Source: Escherichia coli (GTDB lineage Bacteria > Pseudomonadota > Gammaproteobacteria > Enterobacterales > Enterobacteriaceae). Taken from it: a stretch of DNA of 64,000 nucleotides. Both the position numbers and the translations under genes were made by a program. The DNA lies in assembly GCF_050920415.1 (NCBI RefSeq), contig NZ_CP169309.1, one strand, 5' to 3'. This document shows, in pieces, positions 49,086-55,362 of this stretch (positions are counted from its first letter, which is position 1; each line of letters begins with the position of its first letter). The notes under the pieces are model-generated. The model made no database searches. It was not told the origin of the DNA and saw only the letters and a list, made by a program, of their open reading frames with translations.

Positions 49086-49625
49086 TTATACTTTGTTATT
49101 CAAAATCAGTTGCCCGTTGCCATCTAACGGGATCTGCGTACCCGGATCGCGGTCCATGCGGATTTTGCCCTGCTGATCGCCAATCTTATAGGTCACATCA
49201 TAACCGAGCATTTTTTCTGACTTGTCATACACCGTTTTACAACGCTGTTGCGTAGTCGTGTAAGTATCGCTTTCCTGGAGAGAGCCCTGGATCTGGTTAC
49301 CGGCATAGCCACCTCCCAGCGCCCCCACAACAGTGGCGACATCTTTACCGCGACCACCGCCAAACTGATGCCCTATCACGCCGCCAGCAACAGCGCCGAG
49401 CACCGACCCGGTAATGCGATTTTCATCCTGCACCGGTCGACGATGGGTCACTGTGACGTTGCGACACTCCTGACGCGGTGTTTTAACCGTTTCCTTGATT
49501 GGGGTTGCAGAAACAACCTGAGCGTATTGCGGGCCACGTTCAAACACGTTCAGACTGGCCACTGCCGCTACGCCCAACGCAGCTGCGACACCAATCCCCA
49601 TACCCGCCAACATTGATTTATTCAC
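49086..49625 (-). CDS. ycfJ: Glycine-zipper membrane protein YcfJ (GTG start inferred)
   Basis: 179 aa from (V)NKSMLAGMGIG. Confidence 0.8.
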   Translation of the reverse strand: MNKSMLAGMGIGVAAALGVAAVASLNVFERGPQYAQVVSATPIKETVKTPRQECRNVTVTHRRPVQDENRITGSVLGAVAGGVIGHQFGGGRGKDVATVVGALGGGYAGNQIQGSLQESDTYTTTQQRCKTVYDKSEKMLGYDVTYKIGDQQGKIRMDRDPGTQIPLDGNGQLILNNKV

Positions 49626-49851
49626 GGGAACACCTCCTTCTTTGCTGTTATGCCAATCATGCAAGTGAAGGAGAAAAGCAGCTATCAGACAGAAGATGAA
49701 AAGCGCGGGAATGGCTGGAAATACTTAGGGATTCGGAGGAGTCTGAAGGAATGCCTGATGCGACGCTTAACGCGTCTTATCAGGCCTACCGCTCGTACCA
49801 TTTGTCCAGGGCGGATAAGGCGTTTACGCCGCATCCGCCAGTACAAGCCGA

Positions 49852-51156
49852 TTAATGCAACTTCAAACGTGGACGGATAACGCGGTTAATACTCCCCACC
49901 AGCATCATTAATCCGGTTTTAAAGTAACCATGCAGCGCAATCTGATGCATTCTGTATAGCGAGATGTATACAAAGCGCGCAATTCGTCCTTCAATCATCA
50001 TTGAGCCGCGCGTCAGGTTACCCATCAGGCTACCAACGGTGGAGAAATTCGACAACGATACCAGCGAACCGTGATCTTTATACTGATAATTTTTCAGCGG
50101 CTTACCGTTCATCTGCGCCAGAATGTTGTTCATTGCGCAGGTTGCCATCTGGTGTGCGGCCTGCGCACGCGGCGGAACAAAGCCCCCTTCCGGACGCGGG
50201 CATGACGCGCAGTCGCCAATAGCGTATATGTCTGGATCGCGAGTGGTTTGCAGCGTCGGTTCCACCACCAGCTGGTTGATACGGTTGGTTTCAAGACCAC
50301 CGATATCTTTCAGGAAGTCTGGCGCTTTGATCCCGGCTGCCCACACCATCAGATCAGCCTCAATATATTCACCATCTTTAGTGTGCAGGCCGCCTTCATC
50401 AGCACTGGTGACCATGGTTTGCGTCAGCACGCGAACGCCAAGTTTCGTTAACTCATTATGGGCCGCAGCAGAAATACGTGGCGGCAACGCAGGCAAAATA
50501 CGTTCGCCCGCTTCTACCAGCGTTACGTTCAGGGCTTCGTTGGTCAGACCTTTATAACCGTAGCTGTGCAGTTGCTTGACCGCGTTGTGCAATTCTGCGG
50601 AGAGTTCTACACCCGTCGCGCCGCCGCCGACAATCGCAATGTTCACTTTACCATTCGCGCCCAGGTTGGCGGAGTATTTCAGGAACAGATTCAGCATCTC
50701 CTGGTGGAAACGACGCGCCTGATGCGGGTTATCGAGGAAAATGCAGTTCTCTTTGACTCCTGGCGTATTGAAATCGTTAGAGGTGCTGCCCAACGCCATT
50801 ACCAGGGTGTCATAGGCGATTTTACGTTCCGGAACCAGCAGTTCACCTTTCTCGTCGCGCAGTTCTGCAATAGTGATTGTTTTCGCTTCACGATCAATAT
50901 CAATGACGGAACCCAGCTGGAACTGGAAACCATGATTGCGCGCATGGGCCAGATAGCTCAACGCATCGACGCCTTCATCAAGCGAGCCAGTCGCCACTTC
51001 GTGCAGCAGCGGTTTCCACAAGTGGCTGTGGTTACGATCGACCAGCGTAATTTTGGCTTTTTTCTTGCGTCCCAGCTTATGTCCCAGCTGTGTCGCCATT
51101 TCCAGCCCACCAGCACCGCCGCCGACAATCACAATTTTTTTCAATGGCGTAGTCAA
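49852..51156 (-). CDS. ndh: NADH:quinone oxidoreductase II (Ndh) (TTG start inferred)
   Basis: 434 aa from (L)[25 protein letters not shown] before TTG. Confidence 0.9.
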
Positions 51157-51420
51157 CGTGACCCCCTTAAATTTATTAACCAATTGTTAACTAATGGTTA
51201 TTAGCATAGCTCTTAATTAACAACAGGTTACAGCAATGAAAATGTTCTTCGTTATTGAGAATAACATGAATGGTGCATTGGTCATACCAAAATTGATGTT
51301 AATCAAGTTTTGTTGCTGAAAAGATAGGCTGATTTACCGGATGAGATCAAAAAATACAGCTTATTGTTTATTATTTAAACGAATTCAGGAGGGTGAGACG
51401 TATATGGAGGGCGTTTGGTA

Positions 51421-51550
51421 GGCCTGATAAGACGCGAGCGGCGTCGCATCAGGCACATTGCCAGTGTCGGATGCGGCGTGAACGCCTTATCCGACCTACA
51501 GAATTTACAGAATCTGGAACGCATCAGGTATCAGCAAGGTTACCTGATGC
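51421..51550. repeat. Cluster of REP/BIME palindromic units
   Basis: ggcctgataagacgcg..cgcatcaggc and two further REP-like palindromes. Confidence 0.5.
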
Positions 51551-51561
51551 GACGAGGGCAT

Positions 51562-52104
51562 TTAACCGAGGGTTTTGAACGCTTTAATGCGCTGCAAATG
51601 CGGGGAGATATTCTTGAATTTGTGCGTCTGCTCTTCGTCCCAGACAATCTCGTAATAATGATGCAACTCTTCAGATGTCCGCTGGCTGTTAAGCGCTTCA
51701 TCGTTACGCGACAAAATCACCAGACAACGATCGCGATTCTTCTCGCGGAAGTTGGTCACACACTTAGTGGCAATATCGGCATACTCTTCCGGGCGATCAA
51801 TCTTGCCTTCCATGTTCTCATAAGGGAACAAATTAGGATTGAAGATCACCTGGCGGATATCGCAAAGAAAACCAATTCGCTCCGCCCAGTATCCGCCCAG
51901 ACCAACGCCGCATATCAGCGGACGCTCATCGACGTTTAGTTGCAGCATTTTGTCCACTTCTTTGAGCAGATGCTGCATATCATGTTTCGGATGCCGCGTA
52001 CTGTAGCTTATCAAGCGTACATCCGGGTCAATAAACTGCAATTGTAAGACTTTCTCGTGGTTACCCGGACTGTTAGAGTCAAAACCGTGTAAATAGATAA
52101 TCAT
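51562..52104 (-). CDS. ycfP: Esterase-family protein YcfP
   Basis: 180 aa from [10 protein letters not shown]. Confidence 0.85.
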
Positions 52105-52126
52105 CGCTTCCTCACATAAGCCAGGG

Positions 52127-53152: not shown

Positions 53153-53162
53153 ACTGCTCTCC

Positions 53163-53987
53163 TTATTGTTTTATTAATAGCTGCCGCCAGGTGTCATCGG
53201 CCAGCCTGATAAATTGTTGATCGCCGGTTTGTCGCCAGCGGTACTCAAACCACCCTGCTTTGAGCATCAGCAACCAGGGAAACCATCGTCTGACCTGACG
53301 CCATAATTGCACCGGATAAATCTTCGCGCGAGTGGCATAGTCATTGACCAATTGCCGGTGCTGGTCAGTATTTTCCACCCACACCGCCGCCAGTTCCAGC
53401 GCGATATCACCATCTCCGGCATACTCCCAGTCGATGAGTTTTAACCCTGACGCGCTATGCACTAAATTTCCGGCGTGGACATCCATATGCAATGGACTTA
53501 AGCGTAAAGGCCGTGGTTCCCGCGCTTTGCGCAGACGTTTTAACCTTCGCAGCCAACCCACTGTCCGCCGCGCCGGATCGCTTTGCTGCCAGTACAGTTC
53601 CAGTAACGGCAACAGCGTTATTCGCCAGCCAAAACGCGGTTGTTGATGTAGATAATACAGCAAGCCTGCCAGTTCGTTGGTATCCGGCAAATACGTTTTT
53701 ACCTCGCCGGGCAGATAGTCGACCACCATCCAGTCACGGAGATATAAATGCAGCTTCGGTGCAATGCATGCGGGTAGTTGTGATAAAGCCCGATACTGGC
53801 GCAAGAACGCGAACCGCGGCGCATCAGGATCGTGCGGCTGACGCACAACAAAACGCTGGCCCTGATGTTCAATGAGAAAACTCCCGCCACTAAGCCCACT
53901 ATTAAACGTCGTGACGGGATGAAATTGCGGGAAAAAGCGCGACAGCAATTCGTCGCGCGTGATGGGATTATTGCTGCGAAACGGCAC
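53163..53987 (-). CDS. thiK: Thiamine kinase ThiK (GTG start inferred)
   Basis: 274 aa from (V)[13 protein letters not shown]. Confidence 0.85.
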
Positions 53988-54609
53988 CTTTACCTGACCA
54001 GATAATTTCACCCGTCTGCACCAGCATCAGCTGCATTTGTAGGGTCGGAGCGTTAACGTTGCCAGAGGCGCTGGAGTACAGCACGTAATGAGCGCCGACA
54101 TTGCGGGCAATGCCTATGGCTTTACTACGGGTACCTAAACTGTCCTGCGGCGACAAACCTAACTGTTGCTTCGCCATCGACAGCTGCTGGGCGGAAACCA
54201 GGGTAAATTTACCGTTATTAGCCAGTGCATTGCGCAGCGTTTCGGTCGCTTCTGCGGCATTCAGCGAACCGTTAGTACGGTTGTTAACACTATCAACCAG
54301 CAGGACGCTACCCGCAGTCACACCGTCAGCCCCAAGCATTTTACTGACCATCGGCTGCATTGCGCCATTCCAGTCATAATGGCGAATATGCGGTGCAGGC
54401 GGTGCGGTTTGATCTTCATGCTCAATTGGCCCTGGCTGCTGCGGGATCGTCGGCACCGAGGGCACTGTGGGGACAGGCTGTTGTGGCTCGGCTGGTTGTT
54501 CCGGCGCTGGTTTCACTTCTTCTACCGGTGCAGGTTCACGTTGCCCCACACACCCGGCGAGAAACATCGCCAGCGCGGTAATCAAGGCGTAGCGACTCAT
54601 TTTTGTCAT
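53968..54609 (-). CDS. lpoB: Penicillin-binding protein activator LpoB
   Basis: 213 aa lipoprotein with proline-rich linker. Confidence 0.9.
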
Positions 54610-54622
54610 CAAGATTCACCCC

Positions 54623-55000
54623 TTACAAATATAGATAAAGTCTGACTTTGTGCGCCCCCAGAAAATTGGCGCTGCCGTACAGCGTTACCGCCGAATGTGC
54701 GGGAATGGTAACGCTGCGTGGCCTTTCCAGAGGATGCATCTCCAGCCCTCTGGCGTCATACCAGTAAAAACGATAATGAACGGTAACGGGTTCTTGCCTT
54801 TCGTTATAAAGCGTTGAGGATGCTGAAGGTTGAATATCAGACGTCGAAAGGACGGGCTTTTCTGCACTGATGCCCGCAGCCAATAAAGATGACTCCATCA
54901 CCAGCGATTGCTCATCATTCACCGGAATTTCCGGATGTGAACGACAGCCCACCAGCACTAACAACGCCAGAGACACCAGCCCAAAGCATCCTTTTCTCAT
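54623..55000 (-). CDS. ycfL: Lipoprotein YcfL
   Basis: 125 aa with lipobox LVGC. Confidence 0.8.
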   Translation of the reverse strand: MRKGCFGLVSLALLVLVGCRSHPEIPVNDEQSLVMESSLLAAGISAEKPVLSTSDIQPSASSTLYNERQEPVTVHYRFYWYDARGLEMHPLERPRSVTIPAHSAVTLYGSANFLGAHKVRLYLYL

Positions 55001-55002
55001 CG

Positions 55003-55362
55003 TTACAGACCTTTATGCGCCAGCATTGGTCCCAGCGGACGGCCACCCAACAAGTGCATATGGATGTGATACACCTCTTGTCCGCCATGGCGATTGGTGT
55101 TCATGATCAGACGATAGCCATCTTCGGCAATACCTTCTTGCTCAGCAATTTTTGCCGCTACGGTGATCATGCGTCCCAGCGCCTGCTCGTGCTCAGCAGA
55201 CACGTCGTTCACAGTTGGAATAAGGATATTTGGAATGATCAGAATATGCGTTGGCGCTTGCGGCGAAATATCGCGAAACGCCGTTACCAGATCATCCTGG
55301 TAGACGATATCGGAGGGGATCTCACGACGAATAATTTTGCTGAATATAGTTTCTTCTGCCAC
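55003..55362 (-). CDS. hinT: Purine nucleoside phosphoramidase HinT (GTG start inferred)
   Basis: 119 aa; HIT motif HIHMHLLGG. Confidence 0.9.

Follow-up and report, generated by a model that had tools for sequence, protein, structure and literature searches.

Five of the eight consecutive genes at positions 49,086 to 55,362 of a 64,000-nucleotide stretch of Escherichia coli contig NZ_CP169309.1 (assembly GCF_050920415.1; the whole stretch is referred to as the window) start with codons other than ATG. The ndh gene starts with TTG, and the ycfJ, nagZ, thiK and hinT genes start with GTG; ycfP, lpoB and ycfL have annotated ATG starts. We interpret the non-ATG starts as ordinary, already annotated near-cognate start codons, with a probability of about 0.93. 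All starts of the interval are already in the curated annotation, and four of the five non-ATG genes are also found in published start-site data. The significance of these starts is limited mostly to annotation quality.

The genes are located on the minus strand in the order hinT-ycfL-lpoB-thiK-nagZ-ycfP, followed by ndh and then by ycfJ (Table 1). The genes from hinT to ycfP are closely spaced, with successive gaps of 2, 13, -20, 10 and 22 nt. The ndh and ycfJ genes are set apart by spacers of 405 nt (ycfP-ndh) and 226 nt (ndh-ycfJ) that contain repetitive extragenic palindromic (REP) sequences and bacterial interspersed mosaic elements (BIME). Positions 49000-55400 of the window match the E. 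coli chromosome NZ_CP169399.1 at 100% identity; among 5,426 complete E. coli genomes, identity to this region is 95-99% in nearly all. The annotation of NZ_CP169399.1 by the Prokaryotic Genome Annotation Pipeline (PGAP) has the same starts as those read in the window. In the K-12 MG1655 RefSeq genome (NC_000913.3), the start codon and the length of the coding sequence (CDS) are equal for all eight genes, and the 30 nt upstream of the starts are identical or one single-nucleotide polymorphism (SNP) apart.

An earlier note on this DNA had proposed a TTG start with an AAGGGGG Shine-Dalgarno (SD) sequence for ndh and GTG starts for ycfJ, thiK and hinT, and had regarded them as annotation details and not as anomalies. 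These four starts agree with both PGAP and K-12, the comparison with curated K-12 starts that the note had named as its check showed no difference for any of them, and its view of them as annotation details is upheld for all four genes. The nagZ gene was not listed there; it is the fifth non-ATG gene of the interval, with GTG in both the window and K-12, and was missed by the sequence-only reading that recovered the other four curated starts. The curated K-12 genes hinT (b1103), thiK (b1106), nagZ (b1107) and ycfJ (b1110) have the same codon at the same position as in the window, with zero to one SNP in the upstream 30 nt. Their proteins differ from those of K-12 by 8 amino acids (aa) in ThiK, 8 aa in NagZ, 2 aa in YcfJ and none in HinT. 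All 434 aa of the Ndh protein are shared with K-12, and 36 synonymous differences separate the two genes. The window represents a different E. coli lineage and shares with the K-12 ndh described by Young et al. (1981, Eur J Biochem 116:165) the gene, the TTG and the upstream sequence AAGGGGGTCACG; the title of that paper ends with the words 'UUG initiation codon'.

Published data on translation initiation cover four of the five non-ATG genes. Hör et al. (2022; PMC9825163, Table S2) reported INRI-seq values obtained in vitro in five replicates, and tabulated with them the in vivo Ribo-RET values of Meydan et al. (2019). At the annotated K-12 starts, the values are 82-107 (INRI-seq) and 69.3 (Ribo-RET) for hinT, 118-219 and 9.3 for nagZ (K-12 position 1164095), 16-40 and 101.8 for ndh (1166085), and 119-222 and 24.4 for ycfJ (1167599). 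The starts of all four genes are marked there as 'identified' in INRI-seq and Ribo-RET alike. For hinT, an N-terminal peptide in the TRAINSPOTTER data set (PMC13245402, Table S1) was mapped to the GTG at K-12 positions 1161885-1161887. This peptide has methionine at the GTG-encoded position, and it is therefore direct proof of initiation at this codon.

The annotated codons are also the best candidates by pairing with the ribosome. All in-frame ATG, GTG and TTG codons from the upstream stop codon to codon +40 were scored for pairing of their upstream regions to the 3' end of 16S rRNA, and in eight of eight genes the strongest SD pairing among the in-frame candidates belongs to the annotated codon. 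The pairing energies of the non-ATG genes are -13.0 kcal/mol for ycfJ, -11.9 for ndh, -9.3 for nagZ, -5.6 for hinT and -4.9 for thiK. SD sequences 4-9 nt upstream of the start are present for ndh, ycfJ, nagZ and hinT, and thiK has only a weak AGGT. No in-frame ATG occurs within 40 codons of the hinT or thiK start. In ndh, the first in-frame ATG is codon +19, past the N-terminal GxGxxG motif, and solved structures of NADH dehydrogenases of type II (NDH-2) align to the ndh product from residue 4-7. The chain of PDB entry 3n1s is identical to HinT of the window over all 119 aa; no solved ThiK structure was found for a similar check of the thiK start.

The conservation of the start codons was analyzed in 80 syntenic loci from Enterobacterales genomes ranging from Escherichia to Serratia and Erwinia, collected with nagZ as the query; in each locus we read the codon aligned with the E. 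coli start. The aligned codon of nagZ is GTG in 72 loci, ATG in four and TTG in one (79 loci), that of ycfJ is GTG in 66 and ATG in five (71 loci), and that of ndh is TTG in 62, GTG in nine and ATG in four (78 loci). For thiK, GTG is found in 71 loci and ATG in one (80 loci, after correction of a one-codon indel), and for hinT, ATG is found in 59 loci and GTG in 19 (78 loci). The comparator ycfP has ATG in 80 of 80 loci. The ATG-bearing orthologs of hinT, ycfJ, nagZ and ndh (59, five, four and four loci, respectively) have their ATG exactly at the aligned position. The conservation of the majority start codon exceeds that of fourfold-degenerate sites in the same genes and loci (0.91 vs 0.58 for nagZ, 0.93 vs 0.55 for ycfJ and 0.79 vs 0.64 for ndh), and therefore in these three genes the weak codons appear to be maintained and not to be drifting to ATG.

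GUG and UUG codons are read by the initiator fMet-tRNA on a 30S subunit placed by the SD sequence, and the protein still starts with methionine. The efficiency of GTG and TTG is reported to be 8- to 12-fold lower than that of ATG (PMC11445065). A strong SD accompanies the weak codon of ndh, ycfJ and nagZ, and the product of both would set the expression level; this combination is kept across Enterobacterales. We infer that expression of these genes is tuned by codon and SD jointly. A trend of compensation between start codon and SD was described by Belinky et al. (2017), and the results for ycfJ, nagZ and ndh fit it: the SDs of ATG-bearing orthologs are weaker by 2-3 kcal/mol (p=0.0002 for ycfJ, p=0.003 for nagZ, p=0.058 for ndh; four to five ATG-bearing loci per gene, with no phylogenetic correction). 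The three genes are a small local example of compensation already described genome-wide. A conserved near-cognate start that lowers translation is known for the GTG of lacI (PMC11445065), and conservation above the neutral level suggests that the weak codons considered here are maintained likewise. Unlike the regulator lacI, these genes code for enzymes and envelope proteins.

The history of the hinT start is different. The GTG occurs only in Escherichia, Salmonella, Citrobacter and Intestinirhabdus. ATG is found at the same position in the other genera; therefore, the position of the start is fixed and GTG is a recent change, an A-to-G substitution in the Escherichia/Salmonella/Citrobacter group at an otherwise ATG start. 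Of the 19 loci with GTG, 13 (those of Salmonella and of most Citrobacter) have an in-frame ATG six codons upstream, with SD pairing of -2.1 to -4.9 kcal/mol vs -5.6 kcal/mol. The start of hinT in Salmonella and most Citrobacter may be ambiguous or may yield a protein 6 aa longer. E. coli genomes have TTG or TTA at this upstream position (window positions 55378-55380), with a poorer SD.

For thiK, comparative evidence points to the GTG as the probable start. It is the first possible start of the open reading frame (ORF) in 58 of the 80 loci, and in 20 loci no other start occurs in the 40 codons downstream. The window has a non-conserved in-frame GTG eight codons upstream (54009-54011) that is absent from K-12, and in Citrobacter this upstream position is shut off by a stop codon. 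Since the thiK start overlaps lpoB by 20 nt, has a weak SD and shows no independent initiation signal, we suggest that thiK most likely either would need ribosomes that translate lpoB (translational coupling) or is expressed at a very low level. Among the operon-internal genes, the most stable predicted structures of initiation regions are those of thiK (-15.7 kcal/mol, 53953-54022) and ycfL (-17.1 kcal/mol, 54966-55035), both on the minus strand. Independent initiation signals in INRI-seq and Ribo-RET are absent or very weak for just these two of the operon-internal genes. As eight regions were compared (n=8) and the z-scores are unremarkable, the coincidence of a stable structure with a weak signal does no more than hint at translational coupling.

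Several results weigh against the reading of all five codons as ordinary functional starts whose strength is tuned together with the SD. The thiK gene has no peak in INRI-seq (0) or in Ribo-RET (0) in the tables of PMC9825163, and it is the sole start of the region without experimental support. The third base of an lpoB glycine codon supplies the middle base of its GTG; this codon is GGT in 67 of 80 loci vs 66 of 80 for a neighbouring control glycine codon, and the comparison thus contributes nothing on extra constraint at the synonymous site. The predicted folding of the eight initiation regions does not differ from that of shuffled controls (z from -0.44 to +1.13), and these unremarkable energies give no structural support for thiK coupling. 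The hinT loci show no SD difference between ATG- and GTG-bearing members, and the SD comparison for the three other genes is based on the few uncorrected loci given above. Finally, when Ribo-RET peaks are called, those lying up to about 10 nt from the annotated start are fused, which limits the ability of the method to tell apart nearby ATG codons of ycfJ and nagZ.

The last point bears on the possibility that the GTG starts of ycfJ and nagZ are mis-annotated. Each gene has an in-frame ATG at codon +4 (49611-49613 in ycfJ and 53138-53140 in nagZ) that could be the true start, and an offset of 12 nt is barely resolved by the Ribo-RET calling of primary initiation sites. We consider this very unlikely. 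The downstream ATGs have practically no SD at a usable distance, with pairing of +0.3 and -3.1 kcal/mol vs -13.0 and -9.3 kcal/mol for the respective GTGs, and the INRI-seq table of alternative sites, which resolves offsets of 6 nt, has nothing at either of them. Moreover, the ATG-bearing orthologs of ycfJ and nagZ have the ATG at the position of the GTG and not downstream of it, and the GTG is kept in 91-93% of loci vs about 55-58% at neutral sites. The annotated GTGs are thus retained as the starts of both genes.

The lpoB gene has an annotated ATG start, and the in-frame TTG directly before it shares with it the SD sequence AAGGGGTGA. The codon at position -1 is TTG in 51 of 79 Enterobacterales loci and GTG in seven, and ATG is absent from the first eight codons in 29 loci; because of this, TTG is probably the older start of lpoB, and many relatives have no other start available. 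An additional site in INRI-seq and Ribo-RET (PMC9825163), in frame and 6 nt upstream of the lpoB ATG in K-12, was assigned to ATC by the authors. The mature LpoB lipoprotein would be unaffected by the choice between TTG and ATG.

Non-ATG starts are locally enriched among the complete core genes of the window, with five of eight in the interval vs one of 19 outside it (Fisher one-sided p=0.0037). The single case outside is ldtC with GTG (46848-46850, plus strand). The prophage half of the window was left out of the start-codon counts and of the Fisher test, as the window is colinear with the coordinates of NZ_CP169399.1 only from position ~34,800 on. The background frequency of non-ATG starts is 18.2% across 34 well-annotated genomes and 9% among 688 proteomically detected annotated starts of K-12; no start-codon frequency specific to K-12 was found, and the background was bracketed between 9% and 18%. 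The binomial probability of at least five non-ATG starts in eight genes is 0.005-0.0065 at a background of 17-18% and 0.0004 at 10%. The enrichment is mild and was picked after the fact, and the cluster is treated here as chance or a weak local bias.

A more ambitious explanation would be that the cluster of near-cognate starts (hinT, thiK, nagZ, ndh, ycfJ and possibly lpoB) is itself under selection and ties envelope, salvage and respiratory genes to the fidelity of initiation, for example through initiation factor 3 (IF3), and that strong SDs make up for the weak codons at steady state. The local enrichment, which becomes six of eight if the conserved lpoB TTG is counted, would fit this scenario, as would the use of TTG by relatives of lpoB, the conservation of non-ATG codons beyond neutral sites, and the demonstration in lacI that a start codon can tune fitness (PMC11445065). 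We find it scarcely credible. The run was spotted after the fact, and roughly 28 such 8-gene runs are expected by chance per genome of ~4300 genes at a background of 18%, and about two at 10%. The clustered genes have unrelated functions and span at least three transcription units, split by the two REP-containing spacers. Because hinT starts with ATG in most genera, the cluster is not preserved as a whole, and nothing in the present results links IF3 to these genes. Individually annotated, ordinary near-cognate starts remain the preferred interpretation.

The intergenic spacers of the locus contain REP/BIME palindromic elements at 51421-51496 (ycfP-ndh) and at 49749-49844 (ndh-ycfJ). The Rfam model naRNA4 matches the former with 73.6 bits (gathering threshold 59.5), and weaker matches are found at the latter. 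A query with positions 49000-55400 has a median of eight matching places per genome because of these elements. The ycfP-ndh intergenic region (~51157-51561) of two or more E. coli genomes, among them NZ_CM177019.1 and NZ_CM169999.1, has an insertion of an IS621 element (IS110 family). For NZ_CM177019.1, the placement between ycfP and ndh, within the REP-bearing spacer, was confirmed (positions 2728-3708 of the extracted locus, L086). IS621 prefers REP targets, and the ycfP-ndh insertions are consistent with this preference.

Table 1. Features of the window, with positions counted from its first nucleotide; SD sequences are given with their positions and the length of the spacer to the start codon
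Feature	Coordinates	Strand	Start codon	SD	Remarks
ycfJ CDS	49086..49625	-	GTG 49623-49625	AAGGAGGT 49632-49639, 6-nt spacer	179 aa, glycine-zipper 2TM protein
ndh CDS	49852..51156	-	TTG 51154-51156	AAGGGGG 51162-51168, 5-nt spacer	434 aa, NDH-2
ycfP CDS	51562..52104	-	ATG		180 aa, ATG comparator
nagZ CDS	52127..53152	-	GTG 53150-53152	AAGGAG 53159-53164, 6-nt spacer	341 aa
thiK CDS	53163..53987	-	GTG 53985-53987	weak SD-like AGGT 53992-53995, 4-nt spacer	274 aa; start within the last 20 nt of lpoB
lpoB CDS	53968..54612	-	annotated ATG 54607-54609	AAGGGGTGA 54616-54624	in-frame TTG 54610-54612 directly before the ATG
ycfL CDS	54623..55000	-	ATG		125 aa; 2 nt past the hinT stop
hinT CDS	55003..55362	-	GTG 55360-55362	AAGGA 55370-55374, 7-nt spacer	119 aa; non-conserved in-frame TTG 55378-55380 (codon -6)
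stxB	13966-14232	-			100% aa identity to Stx2g
stxA	14248-15204	-			99.7% aa identity to Stx2g
three phage tRNAs	15293-15540	-			
Q antiterminator	16003-16704	-			
prophage integrase	31732-32850	+			
Rha-family phage regulator	33103-33675	+			Pfam PF09669, E=1e-26
two ORFs without family match	33712-34242, 34212-34490	both -			

Positions 1-34,800 of the window are occupied by a lambdoid prophage that is located next to potC and carries Shiga toxin 2g-like genes. The prophage integrase is separated from potC by ~1.9 kb (32850-34828) that NZ_CP169399.1, identical apart from this, lacks at the corresponding site; this segment contains the Rha-family regulator and the two ORFs without family match listed in Table 1. 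The closest complete genome covers just 87% of the first 24 kb of the window, at 97.8% identity.

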